From: a virus
Taxonomy: Duplodnaviria > Caudoviricetes
Strand: one strand, 5' to 3'
DNA: 64,000 bases
Virus record (IMG/VR): IMGVR_UViG_3300032280_000800
Span: 32,001 to 96,000 of that record
Shown: positions 3,118 to 63,966 of the stretch, one piece after another
Numbering within the stretch: the stretch's first letter is position 1
Layout of the letters: every line of letters begins with the position of its first letter
Notes under the pieces: model-generated
The model's input: the letters and a program-made list of their open reading frames with translations, nothing else
Told to the model about the DNA's origin: nothing
Database searches by the model: none
Made by a program: the position numbers and the translations under genes

Positions 3118-3140
3118 ATATAGAAAGAACATAGAATAAA

Positions 3141-3974: not shown

Positions 3975-3978
3975 ATTA

Positions 3979-44584: not shown

Positions 44585-46514
44585 TATCTTTATCCTTGTC
44601 TAATATTACTGTAACTGTTTCTTTTGTTGTGTTATAAAAAAATTCTATATTTTGTGTTACATATCCTTTTTTAAATATTTCCACACTGTACTTTCCATAA
44701 CCTAAATCTTTAATAATCTTATATCCACAATCGTCTAAAGTATAATTTTGACCAATTATTTTATAGCAAGCATCGATGGGGTTTATATTTAATAATACCC
44801 CGTTTTTAAATTCTGGATCAGAAAATAATAGCCTATTAGGCGGTTTATTATATACATTTAATAACGATGCGTCAATATCGAACGTGCTTGCTGATTGTAT
44901 CATAGATAATTCTCTTTCTTTTTCAGAAGAGTCTAAAATCTCTATATCAAAAGAGTCAGTATTAATAAATTCATTATTATAAATTAAAGCGCTACTATTA
45001 TTGTCTTTAATTTTAAGAATGTATTTACCATACATTAAATTATTTATTGTTAAATGATATTTATCATTAAAATTTAAAGTTCGCGTATCTCCAAACTCAT
45101 TTGTTAATATTGCAATCAAGGAGCTTTTATCAGCATTCGATACATGACAGGTTATTGACCCAAGCCTATTATTACTCTTTGTAGTTAATGACTGAGTAGT
45201 TAAATTTTTGTGTTTATTAATAAACAGTATTGGTTCAATATCTATTGTATTATTATGAATAATGTTTAATATAGTAGAAATATTATTAGAAAAATACAAT
45301 CCGCTTTTAATAAATACTTGTTTAATTTGAGTATCTATGTAACTATTGTTTGATAATTCATTTATTTTTATAATATCATTATTTTTATAAGCAAAACTAT
45401 AATCATTAGATATAATCATAGATCCTATAACTAATTTAGCTCGACCACTACCAAAAACATGTTCTAAATTAATTTCTTTATCATTAAATAAAAGCTTACT
45501 TTTTACAAAATGTGGGGCCTCTATACCTGGAGATATATAGTAATATTGATATTCTTGATCATTTATAACAATATTTCCATAATCCATACATAGTTTTTGT
45601 TCTATTTGATGATTACCATTTTTAATAGATATTTCAGACGAAAGAATATCTGAATAGTCTGAGGATTTACTTAATGGTAGCAGCAATAAATTGTATACTA
45701 CTTTAGCTTCTACAGGATCAAATAATGCCTTGGTGCTATAATCATTAAATCTACTCACATTAACAGATATTGGTTTTGGTTGACTAATAGTAAAATTTCT
45801 AATAATCTCACAATTATTTTTATCTGTAACTATTAATTTATAGTCCCCAGCAACTAACTTATAATTAATAGATGTTTGATTTACTATAATAGGCTGCGGA
45901 ACGTCTTCTTTAAACCATGCTACTTTATATGGCTCAACACCACCAGTAATATTGCAAGAAACATTGCTCGAAACCCCATTGTACTGTGTAATGGGCTCCC
46001 ATTTTATTTCTACAGATAGTGGCTTTGTAATAATTCTTATTTCTTTTTTTTCGGCTATACATCCATTTTTATCAGTAACGGATATGTTATAATAATAATT
46101 GGGCTTAATTATATAATCATAAAATGTTTGAGATGTATTAATTTTAAAATTATTAATACTTAATATATATGGGGCTAGTCCACCAGACCACTCTATATGC
46201 ATAGAAATATTATCGTTATAGCACTGTATATCTCCAACATGAACCAAGTCCATAGACAAAGCGTCTGCACAAGATAAGTCAATATCAATAGTTTCTGTTG
46301 ATTTTTTAAGTAAATTATAAATTTGAAGAGTATATACTCCACAAGATAGATTGTATACTGTTTTACCATAGTCAGCTATCAAAGCATCAGTATTAATATT
46401 AGTCCAACTAAAAGATAGTAGACCATTAGATCTATCGATAATGGTAATACTACCAGTTTTCTGATCTATGCATTTAGGCTTAACTGTTTGTATTGAATAA
46501 GATTTTGTATTCAT
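44577..46514 (-). CDS. Putative virion adhesin with SprB-like/Ig-like beta repeats
   Basis: GGLAPY..S, SVTDKNGC, ITGGVEPYKVAW, LVAGDYKLIVTDKNNC, L.YGKY.L.I match the SprB-repeat pattern. Confidence 0.6.
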   Translation of the reverse strand: MNTKSYSIQTVKPKCIDQKTGSITIIDRSNGLLSFSWTNINTDALIADYGKTVYNLSCGVYTLQIYNLLKKSTETIDIDLSCADALSMDLVHVGDIQCYNDNISMHIEWSGGLAPYILSINNFKINTSQTFYDYIIKPNYYYNISVTDKNGCIAEKKEIRIITKPLSVEIKWEPITQYNGVSSNVSCNITGGVEPYKVAWFKEDVPQPIIVNQTSINYKLVAGDYKLIVTDKNNCEIIRNFTISQPKPISVNVSRFNDYSTKALFDPVEAKVVYNLLLLPLSKSSDYSDILSSEISIKNGNHQIEQKLCMDYGNIVINDQEYQYYYISPGIEAPHFVKSKLLFNDKEINLEHVFGSGRAKLVIGSMIISNDYSFAYKNNDIIKINELSNNSYIDTQIKQVFIKSGLYFSNNISTILNIIHNNTIDIEPILFINKHKNLTTQSLTTKSNNRLGSITCHVSNADKSSLIAILTNEFGDTRTLNFNDKYHLTINNLMYGKYILKIKDNNSSALIYNNEFINTDSFDIEILDSSEKERELSMIQSASTFDIDASLLNVYNKPPNRLLFSDPEFKNGVLLNINPIDACYKIIGQNYTLDDCGYKIIKDLGYGKYSVEIFKKGYVTQNIEFFYNTTKETVTVILDKDKDNA

Positions 46515-48159: not shown

Positions 48160-51100
48160 TTATCTACCTAATCCAATCAATTCGGTAACTCTTAATTGTA
48201 TCTTATCTACTAGTCGTTTTTCGTCTTCTGGACTTAATTTATAGCTACTATCTGCTGGAGATGTTAATTCTACTTCTATCTTACCCCCTTTAAAGGTTAC
48301 TATTTCTGGAATACTTGGTCCTTTAATTTCAATAGATTTAATAGAATCTAAACCTCTAATAAAAGTATCAACATGTTTTCCAAAAGCGCTAACGGGACCA
48401 CCTAATGCAGGGAAAACTCTTGCTAGATTATTTATAAGAGCTCCTAAATTAGCAGTCTCAGCACCAAAAGATTTGATAAAGCTGTCAAATACTGTGTTGG
48501 CACTAGTCATATCAAATCCCATAGCCTTACCAAAAGATTGTGCCACGTTCATAACATTACTTCCTCCGCCAACCTTTCTATATATTGGATTAATAATTCC
48601 TCCAGATTGAGCATATGAAACTCCGCCCATACTGGGGGCGCTGCCAATACTTCCATTATTAATAGCATTTAATAGTGGTAAGTGTTTATTTGTCGCTTGT
48701 TTATTTACAACATATTCTCCACGAGTTAACATTGCTGGAATAGTATCTGTACCCTTGGGTTGATAATTTACTAAAACAGAACCACCAGAGGATAAGTATT
48801 TGGGTTTAATAACATTGTCTAGATGGCTTCTTAATTTTTTCTCTTCTAATATTTCTGGCCTATAAGCAGCTACATCATTCATATTAACTGCAACGTCTCC
48901 AAACCTATGCATACGATTATAATATTTTTGATATCCAAACCATGAAGAATTCTCTTGGGTACTATTGTCTTTAAATGTTGGAATATTCTCAAATAATAAT
49001 TTACCCAGATCAGATAATAATGGAGTGTATTGCTCGGCTTCGGATCGTTGAAGTGTCTCATCATTAAAAATTGCTTGAGCTTTTTGTTGTACTCTTTGAT
49101 GAGCTAATTGAATTTTCTCTTTAACGTCTTGACCTAAAGATGGAGATGCTGCTGGGGCTTTGGGAGGAACTACTCCTGGCTTGTCTCCACCAGCACCAGC
49201 TGCTTCAATATCCTTAGCTTCCACAGACTGCATATCTAGATGTTTTTTCAAGTAAATAAAATTTGGATTACCGAATGGTGATGGCATAGTTGGGAAATTT
49301 GAAATTTCGCCAGTATATTTGCCTCCGAGTCTAGCTACTTGTTGTTTAATCATTTCATATGGCTGTTGATACTCTGTAAATAGTCCAGAATATCCAGCAA
49401 AGAATCTATCAACAGTATCTGCTGGTATTTGTTTGTCAGCAATTTCTACCTGATTTGCTCCCCTGTAAATTTTAGGCATTCCATTATTATCAATGGTTTG
49501 CACAATAGTTTTATTAGCATTTGGATCTGGCTTATTTACTAAGTCGGCAACAGGCTCTGTGCCATAGCTTCTTAATGAATCCCAGAATTCATATGGCTTT
49601 TTAAGAGTTTTTAATCTATCTTGTATACCTTTTGCTGCTTTGTGATAAGACGTATCTGGTGTTGTTGCTTTTAAATCTTTTGAACTTAATGCTTCTAGTC
49701 TTGCTTGTCTTTCGCTTACATTACGATCCTTATTAAAATTAAGAGTGTCTACTAAGAATTCTAAAAATTTAGTTTCTCCAGATAATGGCTTATTGTCCTG
49801 ACCCATGAAAGGCTGCGCTGCTGCGTCACCAATTTCTGTATTTGCTCCGTTTAATAGATTAGCTCCTGCTGCAATTTCTCTCATTAATCCTGGAGTAATA
49901 GATTCTCTATTATTAATGGTAAATGTGTCAAGATTTTTAATTCTATCCAAAGTATTAACATCTGCTAAAACTGTATTTCTAACTTCTTCTGGGGTTCCGG
50001 GTAGTTTATAGTTGTCGTCAATTCTTTTCCATTGTTTAATGTCTTTTGGTGCTATTCCACCAAAAACCTTATCTAAATTAGCTCTCTTCCAAGTTGTATA
50101 TCCTTGTCCAAGTTTTTTACGTAAACTAGTAATTTGTTCTTCTTCTGTTTTCCCTTCTGGTTTATTATCTATAGTTAGTTTCTTAAATCCTGGATTTACT
50201 TTTTTATATATGTTAGGATTACCATCTGCCATTTGTCCAGTATACAAGCCCATAGCAGCAATAGCATTCTGATAATTCTTTATAGTTTTTGGCAAAACAT
50301 ATTGTTCTTTGGATCTATTATCAGTTTGTGACGATGTAACCCCCTTAATCTGTTTAAGGAATGCTTGCTTATAATTTTCTACAAAACTATCATCGTATGC
50401 TTTTTCTGTTGTTTGCAAGTTCCATAAACCAAACTTATCTGCAAAACTATCGGTGGTAGGATTAGCACTTGCTGTACCATACATATTTTGTAGTTTATCC
50501 AAATTCCACGATAAACTACTATTAACAGATGGTAGGGACTGTGCAATAGTTGGATCTATTTTTTGTATCCAAGCTTTAAATTGTTCATTATTTTCTGGTA
50601 TTTTTTCTTTAATACCAAGAGCACTACCATAATTCTTTAGCATTGTACTGATTAATTCATTAGTATCTCTAATGTATGGTCCAGACTCTCCGACAACATT
50701 CATCGATCCGGGTCTGCCATATGCCATATCAAAATTACTAAAAGTTTTGAATGGATTAATATGGGCTCCACCCTTTAATGGAGTATTAAATAATACGTAT
50801 TCCATAGATGGAGAAGATTCAAATTTAACGCCAGCACCAACACGATTTTTGTATAGTTTATCTAATACTTCTTGTTTTTGTCTTTCTAATAGTTTAACAG
50901 AGTCTGAGTCTCTGCCTTCTTTTTTAATTTTCTCTGCTATATCTTTGTCAATTTTCTGCATTTGTACAGTAGCTTGATTTCTTTCTTCTTCGCTAAGAGT
51001 ACCCATTCCAGTCATCATTTGGAGTGGATTGTTTTGTAAATCTTCTCTGTTTTCCCATCTGGCTCTCATAGTCCAATACTTCTCAAGCTCAGCATCATAT

Positions 51101-54100
51101 TTATCTCTTTGCTTATTAAAGAAATCCCATGCTTTGCTAGATTCAATAATGTTATTAGCTTTGGATGTTTTTTCTTCTAATTTACTGACTAATTTTTTAC
51201 GGTTATCTTCAGAATCTCCAGGGTATCCATACTTGGTTAGTAAATCATTAATAACCTTTTGTGCAGCAACTTTATCTTCTTTGGTAACTCCAGTAATACC
51301 AGCAGATCCAGAGCCACTAAAGTTTTGCGACTTAAATTTACTATCAGATAACTTATCTCGTAAATGTTTTTGTAGCATTTTACTTTGTGTTGTAACCTGT
51401 TGTGCGGCTTCTGGACCTCTTGATATTGGACTGTTATCTAGGTCTGGTATGGATCCGCCAGCAAAATCTTTAAGATATCTAGATTTTAATTCATTAAACT
51501 TATTAATAACTAAACTATTCTCATCAGTATCTGTACCAGCAATATCCTGTTGAACAACACCAAATTCTCTTAAGTATTGTTGTAATGCCTGTTCGTTCGT
51601 TTGTTTTTTCTTATCTGACGGTATTGAAGATAGTGGAGTACTAAGAATAGATGCATTTCTCGTATACGCATTAAAATCCATTTTACCATCACTTTTCATA
51701 GCTTTGGCAACAATGGCTGGAAATGGCTTTCCGTTCATATCAAAAATATCTTCTCCGTCAAATTTGTCTTCATTATTTCCTTTAAAGCCAAAATCTTGTG
51801 GTTTTGGTATTATTGGACTGGTAACATTAAATGCTGGGAAAGTATTTCCATCTACATTCGGTATTCCAAGATTATTTTGTGCGATATAATCTCGTTCTAA
51901 TTTTTTACGTAAAGCATTTCTTTCGTCAATATCCTTTTGCATATCTGGGGATATTGTCTTGGCATCTGACACTGTTTTGAGTTTCTCGTCGAGCTCTTTA
52001 AGTCTCTTATTTGCTTCTTCTCTTTCTTGTGCTCTTAACAGTTGCCCACGATCAGAGCCATCACCCAGTTCATATTTTGGTATTTTTGCTCCACGAGCAG
52101 TAAAGTTAACCGCCCCCATAGGATCTTTAAGTCCCATAGCTTGTGCAAGTTGCATCTGACCAAACATATACTGATTGTCTTTGGTAGCAAATTCTTCAGT
52201 TCTATCTCTTTGCGTTGTCTCATAAGCTCTCTTTGCTACTTCCGCATTAATTTTCATCTCTTCAATTGGGTCTGCCGACCATGTTGGTTTTGGTAATGGT
52301 CCTCCAGTAACCGGACCAGATGATCCAGAAGCTCCAGCATCTGGTGGCATTGGTCTTTCTCCAAAAACAGCATTATATGCAGCAGAACCGATACCAGATA
52401 CAATAGGCAGTGCTTGAAAAGCAAGACTAGTATAGCTTAATTTTCTCAATACATCCCACGCTTTTGCTGATGTGGTATCTCCCTTTATTTTTAATTTTTC
52501 CCAAGCCCATTTACCAACAACATCTTTATAAGACGGACCCTTGGGGGCCTTCTTTTGTTTTATTAGGAGTTTCCCCTTCCTCTTCGGATCAGGTAAAACA
52601 TTAAGACCCTGCTTTTTCAGAAGATCTAGTGCTTCGTCTTGACTAGTAGCCTCTATTGTGTCTCTTACTTCTCTTCCAGTTCGTGTGTCTAGGGCTTCAT
52701 ATATAAAAGTGGATTTTGGAGGCGTTTTTCCTGCTGCTGGAGCAGGTTTTGGTTTCGTTGAACCCGAAGGTTTTTTGGGTTTTGTTGTGTCAGAAGACTT
52801 GGGCTTGTATATGCTAGGTTTACCCTTCTCTACACTACGGCGACTAGCCAAAACATCCAAACCTTGCTTTTTAAGAAGTGCTATCGCTTCCTCTTGACTA
52901 ACCGCTTCTATCGAATCTCTTACATCCATTCCAAAAGTTTTAGAACCAGCTCGTGTATCTCTAGCTTCATATTTGAAAGTAGATTTTGGTTTTATTGGGA
53001 CTATTGGTGAATCCGCCCTTGGTTCTGCTGGAGTAGCTTCTGGTTTTGGTGCGACTGGTTTGGGAGGAGCTGCTGTTGGCTTTGTGTCTGACGCTTGTTG
53101 AGCAACCGCAGCTTCATTTGGAGTTTCTGGAGGTTTAGTTTTGGTTCCGGTTTTAGCTGCTTTTGCTTTAGCTGCTTTTCTAGCAGCATTAGCTGCTTCA
53201 CCTACTCTAGCCTGTTCAAGTAATCTTGCACGTTCTGCCATCATTTCTGGCGTTGGATTAACAACAGCCTCACCAACCACCCTCTTGGATTTTTGAACAG
53301 TTTGTTCTGTACCGTCTTTAAATAATGCTAAACTTCTATTAGTAATTTCATTAGCATTAGCGATAGGAATACTATTGGGAGAAAGTTTAATAGCATTAGA
53401 TGTAATAGCGCCATTCTGTAACATTTTTGAGCTTACTGAGGTCGCTTTACCAAAAGCTGATGTCATACCCTTTCTGATCATATCATCAGCAGCAGCACCT
53501 CCCATTAACTCAGCACCAAAGCCTATCCACTGTCCTCCTGAATATGATTCTGGACTAGCCTTCATCTTGTCCATAACTCTCTTCTTCATAGATGCTGGAA
53601 TATATTTATTCCAGATATATGAATTTATATCTTGTCCTATTTGATCTCCAAGCATACCTCCAGTAAAGCCTAAAGATAATGCTCCAGCGGTTCCTGTAAC
53701 GATTGCTCCTGGGCCAGTAATCAAGCCGCCCAGAGTTCCGATGGATCCACCGGCAATTGCACCTAAACCACCACCAACAGCACCCAATACCCCAGGAATT
53801 GCTTTACTAGCCAAGCCATACATTAGACTTTCGAAATCAGCTGGCTCAAGGCCTAGTTTAGTATTTCTAAAAGCATTATCAACCTTCATAAATTCTGGAG
53901 TAAATGGAAAATTTCTATCTCCACCGAAGTAATTTTCTTCTAACGGATTACGTCCACCAGTGATTCGTTTATCATACTGTATAGCGTGAGCAGCTTCGTA
54001 GGTTTTGTACCAATCCAAACTCGGACCAGGTTTAAGTTGTTTGTCTCTAAATGCTATTGCTTTATTTAAACTTTGATTGATTTGTTGAGTTTTGTTTTTA

Positions 54101-57100
54101 TCTCCTCCAAAACCTAAAAATCCAGCAGCTTGTTTCTTTTCTTTTTGTAAATTGTCTATCAAAAGATCATTATCTGATAATATCTTATATTTTTGTTGTG
54201 CGGACGTTGAGAGGTATTTCTCATGATGCCCTGATACTGCCGAATTATAACTCTTTAATTCTGACTTATTCAGTATGTTGTCTTTTGAGTTTGATCTAAA
54301 ATCTACATACTTTAATAGATCGCTCTGTGGAAAATTATTTAAAGGAATATGATCGGATGTTCCAGCTAATTTTTCCCACTCTGTATCTGGCACTATGGGG
54401 AATCTACTGCGAACACTACGGTCTAATAAACCTCCCTTAGATAAATATTTAACGCTGCCACCATTACTATACTTACCACTATTTATACTTTGTAATAATG
54501 GTAAATTCCTAGCTGTAGCAGCTCTATTAACAACGAATTCTCCCGGTGTTAACATTGCTGGAACAGTATCTGTTCCTTTGGGAGCAAAATCAACCATAGA
54601 GCCCATAGCGTAATAACTTATTAAACCACCTTTAGCTTTAGGAACAGCTCCGTCCACTCCTCCCAACCCTAATCTATTAGCAACACCATTTAATTGATCA
54701 ACAATATCAGTAATAGCTGTTCTCATCTTATTTGTAAAATCATCAGCGGATAACGACAGAGCCTGTGCTAATAATTGTCCGCTATCAGATATTAATCCTG
54801 ATTGAGCCATAACAGCTTCTGTTTGAATTTTGGCAGCTTGGTTGAATGCATCTATGTATGGTTTAATTTGTGGATTTTCTTGTGGTCTACCAAAATCAGG
54901 ACCGAATACTTCTTTAAACTGATCAAATACAGCGGGGTCTCCGCCAGCATTACCCAGTATGCGTGTAATATTATCAAATAATTCTTTTTGTAAGCGGGCA
55001 AATTCTTCTGGTGTTCTAGTAGATTCCAAAGATTGTAATGTTGATATTGCTCCCGGAATATCTTGTCTGCCACCAGCACCACCAACAACTCTATTGTAAG
55101 ACTCAGTATCTTTAGCAAAATTAAACATAGCTTCAGGATTATCTAACATACCAAAGAAATCCATAACACTACGACGACGACCAGCAGAAATTTGTGATTG
55201 TTCATCAATCTTCTTAAGAGCGGCAGAAGCCCTATCTGTATTATTCGCTAGTGTATCTAGTGCTTTAGTATATTTATTAATTTTTGATGTTAGTTTTGCA
55301 ATTTCGCCTGAGCCTAACGCGCTAGTTGCTGTTCCAGGATCGCTTTCTAGTATTCTCTTTCTGGCAACAGCATCCGCTATTTCTTTACCAATAGCAGTTG
55401 GATCTGTTATACCTCCAGTTAATCCTCTAACAGCAGAGTCTGATGGGTCAGTAAGCTCTCTTAATGAGATTGTTTGATTAAACTTTTCTTTAAGCTGTAT
55501 GGCGCTTTGTAAATTGATGTCTTGTACTCTCACAGTATTATCTGCTAATTTATCAAAATTACCAGCTAGCTGATCAGACACTGCACCAAGCTTACGATTA
55601 ACATCTATTTGTTTCTTAGCATAATCTTCAAATGTTGCTCTAGCTTTTTCGGCAGCATCACTCAATTCTTTGAACGCTTGAACATCATTTGCAAGTTCTT
55701 CCATGGTCATGCCTTGTCTATTCATACTAGTACTAGCCCTTATCCACTTCATGACCTCGTCTTCTAGTTCTTTACGAATATCTGGAGACATATCAAGTCC
55801 ACCAAACATGTTTGTTAGTCTTGAACGAACATTAGCTTCTGAACCAGCCGAAATATCAGCATTTGCCGTATCTCTTAATATTAAAGGCAATTCTTGTTGA
55901 ATAGCCTGAAAGCCTTTAATAAAATCCCCCATTTGTTTGGTTTGCTTATTATCTCCTAAACTCTTACCCACACTATCTACAGCAGATGCTAGCTCCTCTC
56001 TGCTATATGCTGTGATATTTTCTAGAATCCTAGCGTTTTGTGAATCTCCTTCATAGGCTTTGGCACCTCCGCCAGATAATTCACCAGCAACACTCATAGC
56101 TCTATCAGCACTTGCTCCTATTTCAGATACAATACGAGTCATGCTTGTTGATAGTCTATTCATAATATCAACAATATCTAATGTGAATTTTTTAACTGAT
56201 CTATTAACAATCTCAAGTCTAGCTGCTAGTATTCTAGATCTATTTTCTCCACCTAGTTCTTTTTCTACAATAGCATCGATGTTGTCTGCTGCTGTTTTAT
56301 TTTGGACTTTACCTTCTGGTGAGTAAGCTTGTTGATATTCTTTAACTGCTGTGGCTTCGTCCATACCTTGTCTTTGTCTGGCTTCATAATATATTCTTTT
56401 TCTAAGCTGGTCCTGTGCTTTAGCAACAGCCTCATCTGCTTTTTTACGTTTCTCAGAACCCGGCGCTAATGTGTCTAAAAATTCTTGTACGGTCTGAGAA
56501 TTATCTACCTTCATTCCTTGAGCTTCTAAATTACTCCGCATCTGTTGTTCTTGTAAAATATTTAAAGAATTAAGTCTACCAGCACTGTCTTTTGATCTAC
56601 CATATGCTGCTCTTCTTTGGTCTGCTGTTAGAGCAGCCTTCTCTATTGGTTGGCTTTGAGTAAGAACTCTTTCTGCAAAGGCTTGATTGCTAGTAGCGAA
56701 CGCTTCGGTATTGTCTGCAATCTTTCTAAGTTGAATCAAACTCTCCATTTCTTTTTTAGCTTGTTCTATATCTTTACTATTATCAAAATAACCTTTGAAA
56801 CCTTCAAATACTCCAACTAATTGAGATATAACAAATGCTATTTCTAATAGACCAGCGGCGCCACCACCCTTATATCCTCTAACAGCACCACCAGAAGCTA
56901 AGTGCTGAACACCTCCTGATGAAACTTTTGGTGATCTACCTGATGTTGAAATTTTGCTAGAAAACGCCCCAACAGAACCACCACGAGCAACTCTTTGTTG
57001 TTCTTGTATAGCATTTGGTTTCATTACTTGAGAATTAAACATATCTTGTACAGACGATGATTTTATAACATAACTGAACGGCTTTACAGAAGTAGATACA

Positions 57101-60100
57101 GTATCAACATTGCTTGGTGCTCCCGGAACAATGTATGCTGACCCCAATTTCTGAGCAACTGTATTATTAACAGCACTTGCTCCACCACGATTAAGAGCGT
57201 CCAATTCTTGTATACTAGCTGGTAACGGTGGAGGTATAACCATCTCACCTTTTGCTAATTTAACAGGAACTAATCCTCCAGCAGACAACCCTACTCTACC
57301 GCCAGCAGCTTTTCTACTACGCCTTCTGCCTCCTCCACCGCTGGGCATACCTCCTCCTATACGACTACCAATTTGAGCAGCTACCATCATACCCATAATG
57401 CTTGTCATAGTTGATAGCATACCTTCAAGGCCACTAGCAAAAGCATTCCATACTTTATTATCCTTAATGGTTGTAGCTGATTTTTCTAAAGAAACATTTA
57501 ATGCTTGATAGTTTCTATTCATTCTATCTAATAGTTCTTCTCTTTCTCCAAAAGTTTTAGCAGTAGCAAGCTCTCCTAGTGTTTTGTTGAGTTCGTTTGA
57601 AGCTCCAGCCACACCTCTCATAGCAAGTTCGGTTTCTTTGGCTGTTGATTCTTTTATGAAACCAGCAACAGCACCGCTGGCTATACCAGCAGCACCACCT
57701 ATAGCAGCACCCTTACCCTTAAAAGCCTGAGCGCCGATTAATGCTCCACTCATACCGTATGAGCCAGCGCTTTGTAATGCTCCAGTAAAACCAGCTAGTG
57801 CTGGACTAGTATCAGAAACAGTACCAGCAAATTGATCTAAGCTATTTAATATGGACGGCATTTGTGCGCTTAGTTGTGTTGCTCCTAAGCCTATAATACC
57901 AGTAATACCACCTATTTTATCTCCCATCTTGGTAACTCTGTCAGCAACTTTGGGAAAAGATCTCTCTATTAATCCCATTCCTGGAAGATTAGCTGTACTG
58001 TTAGCTCGTGCAACCCTGTCTAATCTTTGTCCTGTTGTCGATTCTAAATTTCTTTGAGCCTGCCTTAAGTTTCCTTGTTCAAAGGCTCCAAACTTACCTT
58101 CCTTAAGAGACTGTTGTGCCCTAACATCAATACCCCTCACCTTCATTTTGCCGGTTAAGAACCCTAGTTCTTTTTCAAATTCTGAATGAGCGTGTTCTAA
58201 TTCTGATAAGATTGTAATATCTTTATCTATAACGTTTGCTAATCCCTTAGAATCAAGGCTAGTTTTAATATCAGCAATAGAAGAGCCTCCTACTTTCTGC
58301 ATACTTGCTATGATATCGTCTATAGATTTAGCTAAATCTGTTTCACCTATTTTAGGATCAATTTTCTTAAATAACTCAGTAAGTCCTTCTCTGGTAGTTT
58401 TTTCAACATCTACATCTCCAATCTGACCCATATTTTTAGTAATTAGGTCTTGTATATCTGTTTGCGCAGTTGTCTTCTCCTCTGTCGCTTTTTCTGCCCT
58501 ATTGTAAATTTGCTGTCTTATATTACGTTCATATTGTTGAAGGCTAATGCCGAGTTTATCAACAATTCTTTGTAAATAATCCATTCTATCAGCATCAACA
58601 GAGCCACCTCCTGCAAATTTACGGAGACCAACTCCACCACCACGATTAAGCCCTAAAGCTTTGGTCGCCTTTGCTCTCAAAACAAAACTACCAACTGGTA
58701 GATTAGTTCTGATGCTGTCGCTAGTACCACTACCCGGCCCTTTAAATACTCCAACGCCACCACCTACCGCAAAACTTCCCATACCATTTTTATCAGCTTG
58801 GTTCATGCGGCCTAGCCTGCCATATCCTATACTTTTGGCAGTTGCCGGAGGAATGTAAGCCTCTCCATTACTAACTAGCGCAGGAACAGTTCCTCCCCCA
58901 GCAAATTGCGTAATGAATCCGCCATTAGCTTTTTGTTCAGCATCTTTGTTTCTATTGGCTCCTAAAAATTTAAATACATCATCAAAAGATCCACTATATA
59001 CAATCTTAGCGCCACCTTCTGGATCATGCTCAAAAACATCATACCAAGTCCTTTTAGAATTAAAGGAATCCATGATGCTTTTACCTTCTCTCCACGAATA
59101 TTTCTTACTCGGAGTTCCTCCGTCTGCAAACTTTTGTAGTATTCCTCCATGAGATTTTTTAGTAGGTAACTTCTGCCCCATGGCTTTAAGAATATTATCT
59201 AATTCGGATACGGCAATATCTCCACTACCATACTGATCTAATAAAGCATATAGGGTCTCTGATAATGCGGTTACTCTACCTTGATTTGGTACTGACGTTC
59301 CCTTGGCTAGCTCCTGATAATCTGGCCAAGCCTTTTGTGCTTTAGATAGTTTGCGTTGAATAGAAGTTTTTTCGTCAGGGTCTTTTGTTGACTTTAATTC
59401 ATCTTCTAATTCGCTAATATAGCTTGGAAAAGATGATCTAATATGACTATCAATTGATGGATCAAAAGATAACTGTCCAGTTTTCTTAAACGAGCCTATA
59501 GCTTCTTCTGCTTGTGTATAAGCAGTATTACGACTTTCTGCCATTAGCGCTGCTGATGCTCTAGCTTCTTTAGCTGCTAGTGCTGGATTTTTTGTTTGTA
59601 CTGACTTACCAAATGGTAATACTTCTTCTATCTCTGTATACCATCCGTCATATTGCTTAATTAAATCTGGCTTAAGGGCTTCTAAAGCTTCTGGTTCTAT
59701 ATCATCTGGTAACTTAACTAATTTTTTGCCAATAGCAATACCAGCGCCACCAGATTCAAAAGTCCACTTGTTAAGCTTATCATAATAATCAGCTAATACT
59801 TTGGGAAGCTTAATGCCGTAATGATCTGACCACTCAACACTATCATCGGTATCCGCATCCCTATAGGCTTGCGCAGCAAATGCGGCGTGATCTGATGGTG
59901 ATAGTGGAACAAATCCACGAGCACCATAGGCCCCTCTTCTTTTGTTCTTGGTAGATCTATCTGGCTTAACGCCTCCCATAGACCCATCATCAAAAGCTTG
60001 AACTTGCCCACCCTCAAACCATTTACTAGGATTCTCATCATAATATCTACCAAACTCTTTACGAGCTCTATCAAAAGCATAGCCAGTAAGAGTTCTCTTT

Positions 60101-63100
60101 ACTTCTGTTGGAATATTACTTGGTATACCAAAATATTTAGCAGCTGGGCCGAGACCATTTTCAAAGTCTACAGCTCTATTTTGTTCTAGTTGAGCAATTG
60201 GTGGTAGGCTGGCACCAAGCTCTGCTAATGCTGCCTCTACGACAGCGCCCTCAATATTTCCTTGACCCATTAACTCTTGATATTCTGGAGCTAGTCCTGG
60301 CTCTTTATAGAGATAAGCTTTTTTTCCAGATTTTTCAGCAGCACCAACATTATCTGCGTTATCATCAATTAATTTTTCTGCTTTACTTAAATTAGCTGCT
60401 TTGGCACTAGCAATATCTGTTCCAAGACCCTGACTGACTCCGGTAATATCTTCTTTACGGTAAGGTAAACCAAAACTCTGAAGAGTCTGTGCCAAAAGAT
60501 CCTCAGTATTTTGTGGTCTAGCAGTAAGGACTCTGGTTTGTTTAATAAAGTCTGGATTGGCATCTATTAGAGATTTTAACTTGGCTCCTAGTTTTGTTAA
60601 TCTACCCTTCTTTAGAGCTTCTTCTACGACGGTTCTATCAGAATATTTGGGAATGTCAGGCTTGCCTTTTTCATTAAGAATATCTGCTCCAGCAACTAAA
60701 GTTTCATCAAAATCGAAAGCTAATGGCTCGCCAGTGAATATATCGGCATATTGTAGATTTTCTGCAAACTGACTCTTAGCGGATGCTGTTTGTTGTTGCA
60801 TTTTAGTAACAGCATCGAAATATTGGGACTTGAAGCCTCTAGCATAAGCATAAACAGTGCGATTATTACCAATATCCCAATTATCAAAATCTTTAGAATA
60901 ATCTAATTTACCCTGACTATCTACTAAACCAACAACACCAACCTTTTTCATTTTTTCAACTTTGGCAGCATACTCTGCGTCTTGTACTCCCTTAGACGAT
61001 AGAGCATTATTGATTACGTCTGAAGCACCAAGTAAATCTATCTGCCCCTTAGAAATCATGTCTTTCCTAAGCCTTCTGCGTAGATTAGTAGGGATAGCCG
61101 TTAGTTCTGCTACACCAGCTTCGTTACCTAGTCCGGCTAATTGCTTAACTAAAACATCTCTAACAGCTTCTTCTATACTTAATCCTGCGTCACTCTTAAG
61201 GCTCTTTTTAGCTAAAATACCAACTTGTCCATAAGGTCTTAATAAGCTTTCATCAACATCAACTTCACCAGCATCAGCAAATTTTTGTATGAATCCTCCA
61301 TTGGATTTTTTATTTGCCAGCACTTCTCTCATTCCTGTAGTAATATTATGACGTCCGCTATTTCCTTCTTTCTTATATGCGGCGGGCTGATTGAATCCTG
61401 CTAATAATTTTTTAGCTTTGTCGTCTTTGTCAGTTACAACCTGTTCAATAGATTGTGTTAATACTCCTGGTAAAATTTTTGATACCTCAGGATCAGTATC
61501 ATAAAAATCGTTGCCTAAAGCTTTTATATTAGCAGCTAACTGTTTTTTTAAGGGCGTGTAATTATCATTCAGTATTTCTTGTTCTTCTGAATCTCCTCTA
61601 CCTGTGAATCTAAATCTCTTATTGCTACCAGTTCTTAAAGATTTGAAAACATCTCTACTCTTAACATAAGAAGCTAATTTACTATTAAAAGACCCTTCAT
61701 TATTTATGATATATTTACCATCTACTTGCTTGGCCCAGTCAGCATTCCAAGTTTCTGGTAAGTCAAGCCCCATATTACTATAAAGCCTAGTAATATTCCC
61801 ATAACCATTTTCTTGAGCATATTTTTTTAAATTTTTTGGAATATCAGTTTGAGTTTTAGCTAGCTCTATATGAGTAAAATCAGTATCTCCACCAGAAGGA
61901 AGTTGTTTATTAACTGTTTTAGATTTTTTAACTCCCTTATCACCAGATGACCCCTTACCAAATCTTTGTACAACTCCCCCACTATTCATAGCATCTAGTG
62001 TGTCTGTGCCATATTTATTAACAGCATCACGACTCATAACATATTCTCTTGGCTCTAATAGAGCAGATACTTTGTCTCCTCTACCAGTACCAGGAACACT
62101 ACCACCTCTTTTAAATCCTAATATCTTGCCTCCATTACTAGCTGTTGTTGGACTAGTTGGGCTAGATCCTCCTGTTGTAAGAGACAGAGTATCTATAGCT
62201 TGAGTTAGATTATTTAAGCCAATAATCATATTTGCTAATGTAATATTAACAATCGATAATTGTGATGTATTTGCTGCTGTAGCAATAGTATTGGCTTTTA
62301 CAGATTTGGAACTTGCTGGAGTACCCTTACCACCTTTGCCTCCAGAACCTCCTGAGCCGCCACCACCTGGACCGCCACCACCTGGACCGCCACCAGAACC
62401 ACCTCCTCCAGTTGGAGGTCCACCAGAACCACCACTTGGTGCTCCACCTCTGCCAATACCTCCTACAAACCCAGAAGCAAATTCACTAAGAATAGAAGCT
62501 CCCTTAATAGCGGCCAAGGCTGTCAACATTGGCAATAGTGGCTTGAGTGCTGATGCCATAGAAATAAAAGCATTGGCTGTGGTTAAGCTAATGGTTGCAA
62601 TTGTTCTAAATGTACTACTATTACCAATATCTCTAATTAAAGCAACAAATGCTTGTCGTGTTTTTTCAAACTGAACAGCTAATGATTGTTGAGCTTGTAC
62701 AGCGTTTTTGCTTAATGATGCCTGACCATTTTGAGCAACTGATAAGGCATCTTGAGCAGTGGCGAATTGTTGAATAAGTGGGATAACTTTACCTATTTGT
62801 CTAAATCCACCAAGCTCTTCTACTATTTTAGAAAATCTTATATCTCTAGGATCAAGACCGGATAACCCTTCACTTAATCTTCTTACGGCCTCATATGGCC
62901 CAACGAACTTCCCTTCTAGATCGGTTAATACTATGCCGTACTCCTTTAAAGCTTCTATTGTTGAGCCTCTCTGAATTCTAGTAAAAATAGTCCTTAAGCC
63001 CGTAGCAATAGTTTCTGCACTTTCACGAGTTGTTGCTCTAACACTAGTAAATAAAGCAACGAATTCATTTAAAGCGTCTGTGCCTTTGCTAACTCCATTG

Positions 63101-63966
63101 CTAGCAGCAGCAAAAACACCACCGGTCCTTTGAATAGCTGTGATAATATCTCCGGCCTCAACAGCAAATGCAGCAGCTACAGCATTGATACTACCCAAAG
63201 CACCCTCTAGCTCACCAGTACTAATATTAAACTGACGCATTAAAGCAATACTGCCTTCGACCGTACTATTTAAATCATCAAAGGATGGAGCTAATGCCGA
63301 CTTGGCTAGGGCTTCTAATGCTGTTTTGGTGTCTTGGGCAGATAATCCTGCCTGTGCTAGTGTCACTGACACTTGTAGTAAATCGGACGAAGTCACACCC
63401 AAATTGGTAGATAGTCTTGTAATTTCTTTGGTAATATCAGATAGTCCCGAAACACTTGTTCCAGTAACTTGTGATAATCTAACTATCTCTTTATCAAAAT
63501 TAACGAATTCTTTAAAAGCACTATTAACTGCATTGGTTAAGCCATAAATAACACCAGTAACCGTACTAAAAGCAGCAAACCTTCTAATAGCTAATCCAGA
63601 CTGCTTACCAAACTCTTGCATTTGTGTACCAGCAACAGAAACAGCTTTACCAGCATTGCTAGCGGCTTTACCTGTTGCTGCCAATGTTGTTGGTCCAGAA
63701 GAACCTAGTCCTCCTAAGCTAGTTGCTAATTGTTGTATGCTAGCACTTAATTGATTAATATTACTATTAGCTTTAATCGCATTAGTAGAAATATTTTGTA
63801 ATCCCTTATTAACTGTAGCTATACTTTTAGAAGCCGATCCTTTGAGGTCTAAATCAACCTTAACTTTAATATTAGATAATTGTTTTCTAATAGAAGAAGC
63901 AATAGCTCTTGTATTTGTAGGACCTCGTAGATTAATCTGTGCAGTTAAATTAAATGCTGCTGCCAT
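48160..63966 (-). CDS. Giant tape-measure protein (TP901-like N-terminal domain) with multiple accessory domains
   Basis: 5268 aa; N-terminal FDKEIVRLSQVTG...LAQAG...AVEAGDI..AIQRTG...TRESAETIATGLRTIFTRI; repeated GTD.VPAMLT.GE.VV modules; glycine-zipper hydrophobic segments. Confidence 0.85.
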   Translation of the reverse strand: MAAAFNLTAQINLRGPTNTRAIASSIRKQLSNIKVKVDLDLKGSASKSIATVNKGLQNISTNAIKANSNINQLSASIQQLATSLGGLGSSGPTTLAATGKAASNAGKAVSVAGTQMQEFGKQSGLAIRRFAAFSTVTGVIYGLTNAVNSAFKEFVNFDKEIVRLSQVTGTSVSGLSDITKEITRLSTNLGVTSSDLLQVSVTLAQAGLSAQDTKTALEALAKSALAPSFDDLNSTVEGSIALMRQFNISTGELEGALGSINAVAAAFAVEAGDIITAIQRTGGVFAAASNGVSKGTDALNEFVALFTSVRATTRESAETIATGLRTIFTRIQRGSTIEALKEYGIVLTDLEGKFVGPYEAVRRLSEGLSGLDPRDIRFSKIVEELGGFRQIGKVIPLIQQFATAQDALSVAQNGQASLSKNAVQAQQSLAVQFEKTRQAFVALIRDIGNSSTFRTIATISLTTANAFISMASALKPLLPMLTALAAIKGASILSEFASGFVGGIGRGGAPSGGSGGPPTGGGGSGGGPGGGGPGGGGSGGSGGKGGKGTPASSKSVKANTIATAANTSQLSIVNITLANMIIGLNNLTQAIDTLSLTTGGSSPTSPTTASNGGKILGFKRGGSVPGTGRGDKVSALLEPREYVMSRDAVNKYGTDTLDAMNSGGVVQRFGKGSSGDKGVKKSKTVNKQLPSGGDTDFTHIELAKTQTDIPKNLKKYAQENGYGNITRLYSNMGLDLPETWNADWAKQVDGKYIINNEGSFNSKLASYVKSRDVFKSLRTGSNKRFRFTGRGDSEEQEILNDNYTPLKKQLAANIKALGNDFYDTDPEVSKILPGVLTQSIEQVVTDKDDKAKKLLAGFNQPAAYKKEGNSGRHNITTGMREVLANKKSNGGFIQKFADAGEVDVDESLLRPYGQVGILAKKSLKSDAGLSIEEAVRDVLVKQLAGLGNEAGVAELTAIPTNLRRRLRKDMISKGQIDLLGASDVINNALSSKGVQDAEYAAKVEKMKKVGVVGLVDSQGKLDYSKDFDNWDIGNNRTVYAYARGFKSQYFDAVTKMQQQTASAKSQFAENLQYADIFTGEPLAFDFDETLVAGADILNEKGKPDIPKYSDRTVVEEALKKGRLTKLGAKLKSLIDANPDFIKQTRVLTARPQNTEDLLAQTLQSFGLPYRKEDITGVSQGLGTDIASAKAANLSKAEKLIDDNADNVGAAEKSGKKAYLYKEPGLAPEYQELMGQGNIEGAVVEAALAELGASLPPIAQLEQNRAVDFENGLGPAAKYFGIPSNIPTEVKRTLTGYAFDRARKEFGRYYDENPSKWFEGGQVQAFDDGSMGGVKPDRSTKNKRRGAYGARGFVPLSPSDHAAFAAQAYRDADTDDSVEWSDHYGIKLPKVLADYYDKLNKWTFESGGAGIAIGKKLVKLPDDIEPEALEALKPDLIKQYDGWYTEIEEVLPFGKSVQTKNPALAAKEARASAALMAESRNTAYTQAEEAIGSFKKTGQLSFDPSIDSHIRSSFPSYISELEDELKSTKDPDEKTSIQRKLSKAQKAWPDYQELAKGTSVPNQGRVTALSETLYALLDQYGSGDIAVSELDNILKAMGQKLPTKKSHGGILQKFADGGTPSKKYSWREGKSIMDSFNSKRTWYDVFEHDPEGGAKIVYSGSFDDVFKFLGANRNKDAEQKANGGFITQFAGGGTVPALVSNGEAYIPPATAKSIGYGRLGRMNQADKNGMGSFAVGGGVGVFKGPGSGTSDSIRTNLPVGSFVLRAKATKALGLNRGGGVGLRKFAGGGSVDADRMDYLQRIVDKLGISLQQYERNIRQQIYNRAEKATEEKTTAQTDIQDLITKNMGQIGDVDVEKTTREGLTELFKKIDPKIGETDLAKSIDDIIASMQKVGGSSIADIKTSLDSKGLANVIDKDITILSELEHAHSEFEKELGFLTGKMKVRGIDVRAQQSLKEGKFGAFEQGNLRQAQRNLESTTGQRLDRVARANSTANLPGMGLIERSFPKVADRVTKMGDKIGGITGIIGLGATQLSAQMPSILNSLDQFAGTVSDTSPALAGFTGALQSAGSYGMSGALIGAQAFKGKGAAIGGAAGIASGAVAGFIKESTAKETELAMRGVAGASNELNKTLGELATAKTFGEREELLDRMNRNYQALNVSLEKSATTIKDNKVWNAFASGLEGMLSTMTSIMGMMVAAQIGSRIGGGMPSGGGGRRRSRKAAGGRVGLSAGGLVPVKLAKGEMVIPPPLPASIQELDALNRGGASAVNNTVAQKLGSAYIVPGAPSNVDTVSTSVKPFSYVIKSSSVQDMFNSQVMKPNAIQEQQRVARGGSVGAFSSKISTSGRSPKVSSGGVQHLASGGAVRGYKGGGAAGLLEIAFVISQLVGVFEGFKGYFDNSKDIEQAKKEMESLIQLRKIADNTEAFATSNQAFAERVLTQSQPIEKAALTADQRRAAYGRSKDSAGRLNSLNILQEQQMRSNLEAQGMKVDNSQTVQEFLDTLAPGSEKRKKADEAVAKAQDQLRKRIYYEARQRQGMDEATAVKEYQQAYSPEGKVQNKTAADNIDAIVEKELGGENRSRILAARLEIVNRSVKKFTLDIVDIMNRLSTSMTRIVSEIGASADRAMSVAGELSGGGAKAYEGDSQNARILENITAYSREELASAVDSVGKSLGDNKQTKQMGDFIKGFQAIQQELPLILRDTANADISAGSEANVRSRLTNMFGGLDMSPDIRKELEDEVMKWIRASTSMNRQGMTMEELANDVQAFKELSDAAEKARATFEDYAKKQIDVNRKLGAVSDQLAGNFDKLADNTVRVQDINLQSAIQLKEKFNQTISLRELTDPSDSAVRGLTGGITDPTAIGKEIADAVARKRILESDPGTATSALGSGEIAKLTSKINKYTKALDTLANNTDRASAALKKIDEQSQISAGRRRSVMDFFGMLDNPEAMFNFAKDTESYNRVVGGAGGRQDIPGAISTLQSLESTRTPEEFARLQKELFDNITRILGNAGGDPAVFDQFKEVFGPDFGRPQENPQIKPYIDAFNQAAKIQTEAVMAQSGLISDSGQLLAQALSLSADDFTNKMRTAITDIVDQLNGVANRLGLGGVDGAVPKAKGGLISYYAMGSMVDFAPKGTDTVPAMLTPGEFVVNRAATARNLPLLQSINSGKYSNGGSVKYLSKGGLLDRSVRSRFPIVPDTEWEKLAGTSDHIPLNNFPQSDLLKYVDFRSNSKDNILNKSELKSYNSAVSGHHEKYLSTSAQQKYKILSDNDLLIDNLQKEKKQAAGFLGFGGDKNKTQQINQSLNKAIAFRDKQLKPGPSLDWYKTYEAAHAIQYDKRITGGRNPLEENYFGGDRNFPFTPEFMKVDNAFRNTKLGLEPADFESLMYGLASKAIPGVLGAVGGGLGAIAGGSIGTLGGLITGPGAIVTGTAGALSLGFTGGMLGDQIGQDINSYIWNKYIPASMKKRVMDKMKASPESYSGGQWIGFGAELMGGAAADDMIRKGMTSAFGKATSVSSKMLQNGAITSNAIKLSPNSIPIANANEITNRSLALFKDGTEQTVQKSKRVVGEAVVNPTPEMMAERARLLEQARVGEAANAARKAAKAKAAKTGTKTKPPETPNEAAVAQQASDTKPTAAPPKPVAPKPEATPAEPRADSPIVPIKPKSTFKYEARDTRAGSKTFGMDVRDSIEAVSQEEAIALLKKQGLDVLASRRSVEKGKPSIYKPKSSDTTKPKKPSGSTKPKPAPAAGKTPPKSTFIYEALDTRTGREVRDTIEATSQDEALDLLKKQGLNVLPDPKRKGKLLIKQKKAPKGPSYKDVVGKWAWEKLKIKGDTTSAKAWDVLRKLSYTSLAFQALPIVSGIGSAAYNAVFGERPMPPDAGASGSSGPVTGGPLPKPTWSADPIEEMKINAEVAKRAYETTQRDRTEEFATKDNQYMFGQMQLAQAMGLKDPMGAVNFTARGAKIPKYELGDGSDRGQLLRAQEREEANKRLKELDEKLKTVSDAKTISPDMQKDIDERNALRKKLERDYIAQNNLGIPNVDGNTFPAFNVTSPIIPKPQDFGFKGNNEDKFDGEDIFDMNGKPFPAIVAKAMKSDGKMDFNAYTRNASILSTPLSSIPSDKKKQTNEQALQQYLREFGVVQQDIAGTDTDENSLVINKFNELKSRYLKDFAGGSIPDLDNSPISRGPEAAQQVTTQSKMLQKHLRDKLSDSKFKSQNFSGSGSAGITGVTKEDKVAAQKVINDLLTKYGYPGDSEDNRKKLVSKLEEKTSKANNIIESSKAWDFFNKQRDKYDAELEKYWTMRARWENREDLQNNPLQMMTGMGTLSEEERNQATVQMQKIDKDIAEKIKKEGRDSDSVKLLERQKQEVLDKLYKNRVGAGVKFESSPSMEYVLFNTPLKGGAHINPFKTFSNFDMAYGRPGSMNVVGESGPYIRDTNELISTMLKNYGSALGIKEKIPENNEQFKAWIQKIDPTIAQSLPSVNSSLSWNLDKLQNMYGTASANPTTDSFADKFGLWNLQTTEKAYDDSFVENYKQAFLKQIKGVTSSQTDNRSKEQYVLPKTIKNYQNAIAAMGLYTGQMADGNPNIYKKVNPGFKKLTIDNKPEGKTEEEQITSLRKKLGQGYTTWKRANLDKVFGGIAPKDIKQWKRIDDNYKLPGTPEEVRNTVLADVNTLDRIKNLDTFTINNRESITPGLMREIAAGANLLNGANTEIGDAAAQPFMGQDNKPLSGETKFLEFLVDTLNFNKDRNVSERQARLEALSSKDLKATTPDTSYHKAAKGIQDRLKTLKKPYEFWDSLRSYGTEPVADLVNKPDPNANKTIVQTIDNNGMPKIYRGANQVEIADKQIPADTVDRFFAGYSGLFTEYQQPYEMIKQQVARLGGKYTGEISNFPTMPSPFGNPNFIYLKKHLDMQSVEAKDIEAAGAGGDKPGVVPPKAPAASPSLGQDVKEKIQLAHQRVQQKAQAIFNDETLQRSEAEQYTPLLSDLGKLLFENIPTFKDNSTQENSSWFGYQKYYNRMHRFGDVAVNMNDVAAYRPEILEEKKLRSHLDNVIKPKYLSSGGSVLVNYQPKGTDTIPAMLTRGEYVVNKQATNKHLPLLNAINNGSIGSAPSMGGVSYAQSGGIINPIYRKVGGGSNVMNVAQSFGKAMGFDMTSANTVFDSFIKSFGAETANLGALINNLARVFPALGGPVSAFGKHVDTFIRGLDSIKSIEIKGPSIPEIVTFKGGKIEVELTSPADSSYKLSPEDEKRLVDKIQLRVTELIGLGR
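52590..52985 (-). repeat. Duplicated ~40-aa PilC/GspF N-terminal-like domain inside the tape-measure gene
   Basis: STFKYEARDTRAG...VRDSIEAVSQEEAIALLKKQGLDVL and STFIYEALDTRTGREVRDTIEATSQDEALDLLKKQGLNVL; similarity also visible at DNA level. Confidence 0.8.
62335..62465 (-). repeat. Gly/Pro/Ser-rich low-complexity linker in the tape measure
   Basis: GGGSGGPPTGGGGSGGGPGGGGPGGGGSGGSGG directly after the TP901-like domain. Confidence 0.85.

Follow-up and report, generated by a model that had tools for sequence, protein, structure and literature searches.

Tandem T2SSF_N domains of PilC/GspF type inside the giant tape measure protein of a rare phage

Introduction

Why would a phage tape measure protein, delivered from the virion, carry two copies of a small domain that belongs to the platform of the host's own pilus machine? 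The question is raised by IMG/VR virus record IMGVR_UViG_3300032280_000800 (111,749 bp, estimated completeness 79%), of which bases 32001-96000 were analysed, a stretch of 64,000 nucleotides that we call the window. Its minus strand encodes a tape measure protein of 5268 amino acids (aa), P0001, and an initial annotation, made from the letters alone, had noticed at 52590-52985 two copies of a unit resembling the N-terminus of PilC/GspF platform proteins. Here we report that both units are almost certainly true T2SSF_N domains, the N-domain of about 45 residues found in these proteins; that they are closest to PilC of Planctomycetota, encoded in three of three operons in the order pilT-pilB-pilC together with the retraction ATPase; and that they form an old tandem duplication kept by selection, each copy with a native-like basic linker. 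As to what they do, a local dock at the base of the host pilus is the reading that we tentatively put forward below.

The native domain has been described for PulF of Klebsiella, where residues 1-54 fold as beta-beta-alpha-beta into a mobile domain that sits at the periphery, tethered by a flexible linker (Guilvout et al. 2023, PMC10790770); in older work the first 62 residues had been removed as disordered. PulF with residues 2-54 deleted is stable, oligomeric and functional, with less efficient secretion and pilus assembly, and between the domain and the remainder of PulF no contacts co-evolve; no partner of the domain has been identified, and that study names both partner and role as an open point (PMC10790770). 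In simulations the N-domain and linker stay on a phosphatidylglycerol/cardiolipin membrane and leave a neutral one, and a Neisseria N-domain mutant loses its pili but regains them on removal of PilT (PMC10790770). The modelled contacts of the platform with its ATPase lie between Cyto1/Cyto2 and the N2D of the ATPase, in models from which the N-domain was omitted (PMC10790770). The initial annotation had started from the premise that the N-terminal segment of PilC/GspF engages PilB/GspE; with a dispensable N-domain in PulF and modelled ATPase contacts at Cyto1/Cyto2, that premise is not established.

Results

The annotated stretch lies in frame inside the 5268-aa open reading frame (ORF), and the motif wording quoted from it was correct. 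The motif F.YEA.D starts at residue 3664 in unit 1 and at residue 3754 in unit 2; the units are 64% identical, and unit 1 carries a 5-residue insertion in the turn between the first and second beta strands. Gene and units are placed as follows, with scores against a hidden Markov model (HMM) of cellular N-domains and with the predicted local distance difference test (pLDDT) of structures modelled by AlphaFold2 (AF2).

48160..63966, minus strand: giant tape measure protein gene (P0001, 5268 aa), a single uninterrupted ORF with PF10145 and PHROG matches
52849..52986, minus strand: T2SSF_N unit 1, residues 3661-3706; 29.4 bits against the cellular N-domain HMM; beta-beta-alpha-beta, pLDDT ~86
52591..52716, minus strand: T2SSF_N unit 2, residues 3751-3792; 46.1 bits against the cellular N-domain HMM; TIGR02120 match; AF2 fold

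The proposed homology of both units to the PilC/GspF N-terminus is borne out by profile matches, with which a curated family listing agrees. Positions 1-36 of 401 in the NCBIfam model TIGR02120 (GspF) align to both units (E 1.3e-6 for the pair), and unit 2 alone matches positions 1-37 at E 3.6e-4 and 19.9 bits. A profile of the two units was searched without a word index against 1.84 billion representative proteins, and its significant matches include a sibling tape measure protein as well as P0011 and P0012, N-terminal fragments of true T2SSF proteins in which the module occupies residues 4-40 and PF00482, the T2SSF core, follows from residue 79-84; P0012 carries the JGI name PilC. When all 1389 six-frame ORFs of the 111,749-bp record were scored with an HMM built from cellular sequences only, the 32 PilC N-domains described below, unit 2 reached 46.1 bits and unit 1 29.4 bits, and the next best ORF 5.6 bits. 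PF28597 (PF28597.1) appears in the precomputed Pfam lists of P0001 and of its two relatives, P0002 and P0003; the domain call is thus already made by the newest Pfam release. The ESM Atlas names the family T2SSF_N, and all 30 of its 30 feature matches for unit 2 are T2SSF_N clusters (best score 0.94).

Structure prediction agrees on the fold. The AF2 model of unit 2, built from a 24-row alignment, has strands at 2-10, 15-23 and 38-40 and a helix at 26-35 (mean pLDDT 82), and both units are predicted as beta-beta-alpha-beta at pLDDT 82-87 with or without an alignment. With a model of one unit, nothing significant was matched (E stayed at 0.37 or above in Foldseek and Z at 3.9 or below in VIA-align), no PilC/GspF-named chain is among the structure matches listed for it, and Foldseek with the 152-aa two-unit model returned ribosomal-protein noise only. 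The top two Foldseek neighbours of the unit 2 model are the RNA polymerase binders YkzG of Geobacillus (4njc) and T7 Gp2 (4lk0), the same two proteins that were published as look-alikes of the PulF N-domain (PMC10790770); at E 0.4-0.6 and 18-22% identity the likeness is not significant, and nothing points to RNA polymerase binding by the units. Several sequence searches were equally empty: on the 132-aa pair a Pfam scan without PF28597 found no family, only noise (PASTA, Arg_repressor), and PHROGs gave no match; a PDB sequence search yielded noise only; and a word-indexed homology search with the 152-aa piece found no match in longer proteins.

The initial annotation had called the pair a possible mimic of the pilus or secretion platform, and of this the copying of the N-domain stands but the rest of the platform is missing. 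The core PF00482 was found in no segment of P0001 and nowhere in the 111.7-kb record, in a search that matched 13 of 14 control genomes. Judged from sequence, P0001 is not a PilC/GspF platform protein; it has the N-domain copied alone, with no Cyto1/Cyto2. The units share with the T2SSF_N of PilC, GspF and PulF the family, the beta-beta-alpha-beta fold, the invariant columns (A, G, E, D, I-E-A, S-Q, E-A, G), a flexible basic linker after the domain, and an expected place on the cytoplasmic face of the inner membrane. They differ in being internal (from residues 3661 and 3751 of 5268) instead of N-terminal in a T2SSF protein, in forming a tandem pair, in having a basic linker but neither Cyto1/Cyto2 nor the three-helix membrane core after them, in riding on a virion protein delivered from outside, and in a diverged third strand and tail. 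This atypical context does not undo their membership in the T2SSF_N family. No prepilin-like motif was found in any frame, and the 'LNILP' with which unit 2 of P0002 ends, although PilN-like, was judged to be chance, as it is not kept in P0003.

The two copies are not recent. Their core DNA is 75% identical and 30 of 41 core residues are common to both, yet 13 of these 30 are written with different codons, from which it follows that the duplication is old and that the protein sequence has been held. Twelve core columns (alignment 9-43) are at least 90% conserved in cells, of which unit 2 keeps 11 and unit 1 keeps 10, the exceptions being conservative (both units have L for I, and unit 1 has D for E). 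Across the three siblings unit 2 differs almost only at columns that are also variable in cells, and unit 1 is identical in P0001, P0002 and P0003. The complete conservation of unit 1 was considered as a special constraint and dropped, the siblings being 93% identical overall with many regions at 98-100%.

The units had also been described as set in Pro/Lys-rich linkers between a glycine zipper and a second hydrophobic segment, and with this arrangement hydropathy and charge agree. In the order of the protein, the flanks are these:

53617..53829, minus strand: hydrophobic stretch with a glycine zipper, residues 3380-3450; 21 of its 71 residues are Gly, and Kyte-Doolittle values peak at 1.2-1.44
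52987..53286, minus strand: Ala/Pro/Lys-rich linker 0, residues 3561-3660; 16 Pro, 23 Ala, net charge +6
52717..52848, minus strand: basic Pro/Lys linker 1, residues 3707-3750; 12 K/R against 2 D/E, 9 Pro, pLDDT ~51-54
52447..52590, minus strand: basic linker 2, residues 3793-3840; 14 K/R against 5 D/E
52366..52446, minus strand: second segment, of moderate hydrophobicity, residues 3841-3867; over 19 residues Kyte-Doolittle values reach at most 1.14

The glycine-zipper region is probably membrane-inserting, and it is 100% identical in P0002 and P0003. No other 100-residue stretch of P0001 carries as much positive charge as one that lies between the hydrophobic segments (net +14). The last 10 residues of linker 0 (model residues 1-10) have a mean pLDDT of 59, and linker 2 resembles the Lys-rich stretch behind the N-domain of planctomycete PilC, where cellular tails read, for example, VKKARKT...KKGK.

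The wording of the units had been likened to that of planctomycete PilC, and a scan of cellular genomes upheld the likeness. The pattern DxIEAxSQ[EDA]E was sought in one genome per species across 185,579 species, with candidates confirmed by tblastn, and 32 loci were found: 30 in Planctomycetota, one in Anaerolineaceae and one in Elusimicrobia. Within the limits of the scanned wording, E(V/I)[RK]D.IEA.SQ.EA is almost confined to PilC of Planctomycetota. The result is not circular, because the pattern was drawn from the phage units and from two matches of the unbiased search. In every one of the 32 loci the module forms the first ~45 residues of a protein of ~410-450 aa, and PF00482 is present in 22 of 23 of the cellular module proteins. 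Phage and planctomycete sequences share this wording and the Lys-rich linker after the domain; unlike P0001, the cellular proteins are 410-450 aa long with two PF00482 domains. Over 46 aligned residues the phage units are 45-48% identical to planctomycete PilC (e.g. L002, L004, L005, L032), and the best segment against L002 reaches 62% over 37 residues. Unit 2 is scored at 19.9 bits by the proteobacterial GspF model and at 46 bits by the planctomycete-type profile, and the proposed resemblance is therefore supported. A scan of JGI metagenomes with the unit profile recovered only ordinary PilC genes, at 11 further loci.

The three operons that were examined (L002, L005, L007) all have the order pilT-pilB-pilC. 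Their PilT neighbours score 400-482 bits against a family cut-off of 319, the PilB of L002 and of L007 also matches the model of an MshE-type cyclic-di-GMP-binding domain at its N-terminus, and L007 has a pilin gene downstream. All three belong to type IVa pilus machinery of the retractile kind and not to type II secretion. Planctomycetota as the host of the phage is a tentative assignment, and the wording is a clue of a rare kind, a host hint read from sequence in a 112-kb phage that could not otherwise be assigned; few phages of Planctomycetota are known.

The protein that carries the units is a tape measure protein by its predicted core domain. Its N-terminal part matches PF10145 (PhageMin_Tail) at E 2.8e-25 in the Pfam scan, and the PHROG tape measure families phrog_28, 4211, 1533 and 1272 match at E 3e-21 to 2e-13 (phrog_28 at 3e-21).

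62845..63429, minus strand: canonical tape measure core domain, residues 180-374, the best PF10145 stretch

P0002 (5291 aa) and P0003 (5467 aa) are collinear relatives, each ~93% identical to P0001 overall and 98-100% identical across most of the length. The divergence is clustered at P0001 residues 501-1000 (62-80% identity), 3751-4000 (82-88%) and 4751-5000 (82-84%), and unit 2 falls within the second of these stretches. No further relatives of the tape measure region beyond P0002 and P0003 were found in IMG/VR, and the phage lineage is rare. P0003 has an insertion of 178 aa after the position matching P0001 residue 668 (window ~61960), the only large insertion there. The precomputed Pfam list of P0003 includes PF03496, the ADP-ribosyltransferase exoenzyme family; since the 178-aa insertion is the only large one, the PF03496 domain presumably lies in it, a hint that tape measure proteins of this lineage take up effector cassettes whose site of action would be the cytoplasm.

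Two other kinds of protein carry the module outside PilC. The unbiased unit-profile search found P0005, a metagenome protein of 2740 aa (full form P0014, 3256 aa) with five T2SSF_N-like modules (residues 1317, 1834, 1958, 2009 and 2064) and, immediately after them, a membrane segment with a glycine zipper; the best of the modules shares 50% of its residues with N-domains of planctomycete PilC, and outside the modules only a short motif that recurs in tape measure proteins is alike in P0005 and P0001 (GTDxIPAM..EFVxN, E 1e-6). P0009 and P0016, metagenome proteins of 97 aa, have a T2SSF_N domain that leads through a basic linker to a single membrane helix at the C-terminus, and could be a cellular regulator or a phage decoy. 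By eye, they are an estimated 80% identical to the N-terminus of L005, the planctomycete PilC with 44% guanine plus cytosine (GC). From these two cases we conclude that the pairing of T2SSF_N with a membrane segment recurs outside PilC. Neither the JGI metagenome scan with P0009 nor the IMG/VR scans with P0005 found a match or relative.

Discussion

How might such a pair serve a phage? The C-terminus of a tape measure protein is the first part to come out of the tail, the remainder is reported to insert into host membranes and to form the DNA conduit, and the tape measure protein of JBD30 is a trimer (PMC11445458). We propose that P0001 would likewise be expelled C-terminus first and that its glycine zipper would enter the inner membrane, so that the basic cassette between the hydrophobic segments would end on the cytoplasmic face, an outcome favoured by the positive-inside rule and by the inside-negative membrane potential. 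There the two domains of each chain may take the niche of PilC's own tethered N-domain, at the foot of the type IV pilus machine, on the anionic inner leaflet, beside PilB, PilT and PilM. The units would then act as a multivalent local dock, anchoring or positioning the DNA conduit at the very pilus machine that reeled the virion in, and once docked they may hinder that single machine; the action would be local, with no shutdown of piliation across the cell. Such local docking, with its display on the cytoplasmic face and its anchoring of the conduit, is a tentative reading, one possibility among several. An ADP-ribosyltransferase of the family listed for P0003 needs nicotinamide adenine dinucleotide (NAD+) of the cytoplasm, and parts of this tape measure family are therefore expected to reach that compartment. 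With a trimer and two units per chain, about six domains would be delivered per virion, a number that suits docking at one machine or at the inner leaflet, not titration of the pilus motors of a cell.

Several observations weigh against docking at a pilus. The topology is drawn solely from hydropathy and charge, and the second hydrophobic segment is weak; there is no evidence for pili as the receptor of this phage. The T2SSF_N domain is dispensable in PulF and in PilC and has no known binding partner (PMC10790770), and the phage copies are therefore a mimic without a proven target, whose third strand and tail, moreover, diverge from the cellular consensus. The planctomycete connection, too, is tentative: the phage has 33% GC (38% in the tape measure gene) against 53-67% in the cellular loci, with the exceptions of L005 (44%) and L031 (32%); a search of 401 Planctomycetota genomes found no relative of the C-terminal 800 residues of P0001 (4469-5268); and nothing indicates that the units were captured recently, their GC at third codon positions (0.19 and 0.28) being the same as in the remainder of the gene (0.21). 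For P0005/P0014, finally, a phage origin is unproven.

The nearest competitor keeps the membrane and drops the pilus. The domain and its basic linker could form a module for anionic lipids that staples the ejected tape measure protein to the inner leaflet with no pilus specificity, the homology to PilC then reflecting the source from which the module was borrowed and not its target. The simulated PulF N-domain and linker, which hold to an anionic membrane and leave a neutral one, fit such an anchor, as does the lack of any known protein partner or co-evolving contact (PMC10790770). The phage cassette retains the charge pattern of acidic domain and basic linker and adjoins membrane segments, and P0005 and P0009 likewise pair the module with a membrane segment. 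Yet for this task basic amphipathic stretches would suffice, whereas the invariant E, D, E, S, Q and E columns have been kept through an old duplication, and the lipid binding itself is known from simulation only. We regard the anchor as a serious, if somewhat unlikely, alternative to the pilus dock.

A second alternative takes the units as passengers: an insertion tolerated in a mosaic tape measure protein, with a role in length, flexibility or tail assembly and no host target. This family of proteins does take insertions, as the 178 aa in P0003 illustrate; unit 2 and its surroundings are more variable among the siblings than the whole (identity of 83% and 71%, where the whole protein has 93%); and the native protein can do without the domain (PMC10790770). 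Against it stand the family-invariant columns, which both units retain although many of their codons differ synonymously, the sequence of unit 1, the same in P0001, P0002 and P0003, and the recurrence of the module in tandem, up to fivefold, in another giant protein that is unrelated. On balance we consider the passenger reading unlikely.

The remaining functional alternatives aim at the pilus motor itself. In the bolder form of docking, six T2SSF_N domains, a trimer being assumed, would take the sites of the PilC N-domain in the socket of PilM, PilB and PilT, and the basal body of the pilus would serve as the entry port through the inner membrane, perhaps with the ATPase as motor; we think this improbable, but if it were true, the partner of the N-domain would be the handle that couples platform and motor. 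Still less probable is an injected decoy, in which the units titrate the partner of the PilC N-domain (PilB or another motor part), stop pilus extension and exclude superinfecting pilus phages. Precedent exists in Tip, Aqs1 and Zip, phage products made in the infected or lysogenic cell that bind PilB (at N2D) or PilZ-PilB and abolish pilus extension (PMC11656802); the Neisseria mutant whose pili return only once PilT is removed indicates that the N-domain bears on the balance of extension and retraction (PMC10790770); and the closest cellular domains come from operons with a retraction ATPase. The P0001 units would share with those inhibitors their proposed aim, the cytoplasmic pilus motor, but by their descriptions the inhibitors stand apart, being small, helical (helix-turn-helix) proteins made inside the cell that are neither PilC mimics nor virion parts (PMC11656802). 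A decoy is further disfavoured by the ~6 domains per virion expected of a trimer, as in other siphophages, which are too few to titrate motors, by the tethering of the units to a membrane-embedded protein, and by the ATPase models, in which the N-domain is not the contact (PMC10790770). The initial annotation had considered a block of piliation and superinfection; that phages can disable pili through PilB stands (PMC11656802), and a cell-wide block from so few copies per virion is unlikely. Chance resemblance of a short beta-beta-alpha-beta motif with no PilC homology, which could appeal to the small, common fold, to the insignificant structure searches (E of 0.37 or more in Foldseek, Z of 3.9 or less in VIA) and to the empty Pfam scan without PF28597, is refuted by the sequence statistics and hardly credible, given the GspF match of positions 1-36 at E 1.3e-6, the 46 bits against 5.6 for the best other ORF with the cellular-only profile, the significant matches to true PilC N-termini among 1.84 billion proteins and the curated listing of PF28597 for P0001.

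P0001 resembles the tape measure proteins of T5 (Pb2), TP901-1 and JBD30 (gp46), which contain embedded accessory domains or make up the DNA channel across the envelope, in its N-terminal core, its putative membrane-inserting segments, its presumed exit with the C-terminus first and its embedded extra domains. At 5268 aa it is several times as long as is usual, and what it embeds differs, a copy of a cytoplasmic part of the host's pilus. The known accessory domains embedded in tape measure proteins act on the cell wall. In the corresponding part of the T5 protein there is a peptidase (PMC11445458). P0001 would be the first tape measure protein found with a part of a cytoplasmic host machine instead of a cell-wall enzyme. 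A literature search returned no paper naming T2SSF_N and no tape measure protein with copies of a cytoplasmic pilus-platform domain; tblastn of the unit sequence against 50,697 phage records gave no match, at a sensitivity that is low for a 40-residue domain; and neither a unit pattern scan nor domain alignment found a match in other IMG/VR contigs. The T2SSF_N domain is conserved across the platforms of type IV pili and those of type II secretion, and two copies of it, alone, on a protein injected through the envelope imply that the isolated domain is useful by itself at the inner membrane. The phage units thus offer a natural probe for the partner of a widely conserved domain, and, as far as sequence can tell, they hint that the entry of DNA may be linked to the base of the pilus.

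Further features of the record

The phage has ~33% GC, and no tRNA genes were found in the 111,749-bp record. The neighbours of the tape measure gene are mostly without PHROG assignment, the exceptions being one match to central tail fiber J (phrog_31), one weak match to a virion structural protein and one match to a Hoc-like head decoration protein. Two genes downstream of the tape measure (window 44577-46514, minus strand), a protein of 645 aa contains a decoration domain of Hoc-like, Ig type (phrog_2973 at E 8e-7), while PHROGs gave no match for three further downstream proteins (535, 325 and 1030 aa). A Pfam scan of P0001 residues 1001-2000, which include residues ~1080-1222 (window 60300-60730), gave no HAD family at E up to 1.

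The motif 'GTDxIPAM..GE[FY]VxN..A....LP.L..IN.G' occurs in three copies in the tape measure protein:

window ~48650-48770, minus strand: GTDxIPAM motif copy, P0001 residues ~5066-5105
window ~54470-54590, minus strand: GTDxIPAM motif copy, P0001 residues ~3125-3165
window ~61960-62080, minus strand: GTDxIPAM motif copy, P0001 residues ~630-668

These copies match the PHROG tape measure families phrog_25241 and 13338. In P0005, otherwise an unrelated giant protein, a staphylococcal-nuclease-like stretch is visible by eye near residue 1010, which a family search did not detect, and a motif of the GTDxIPAM type stands at residue 1245.

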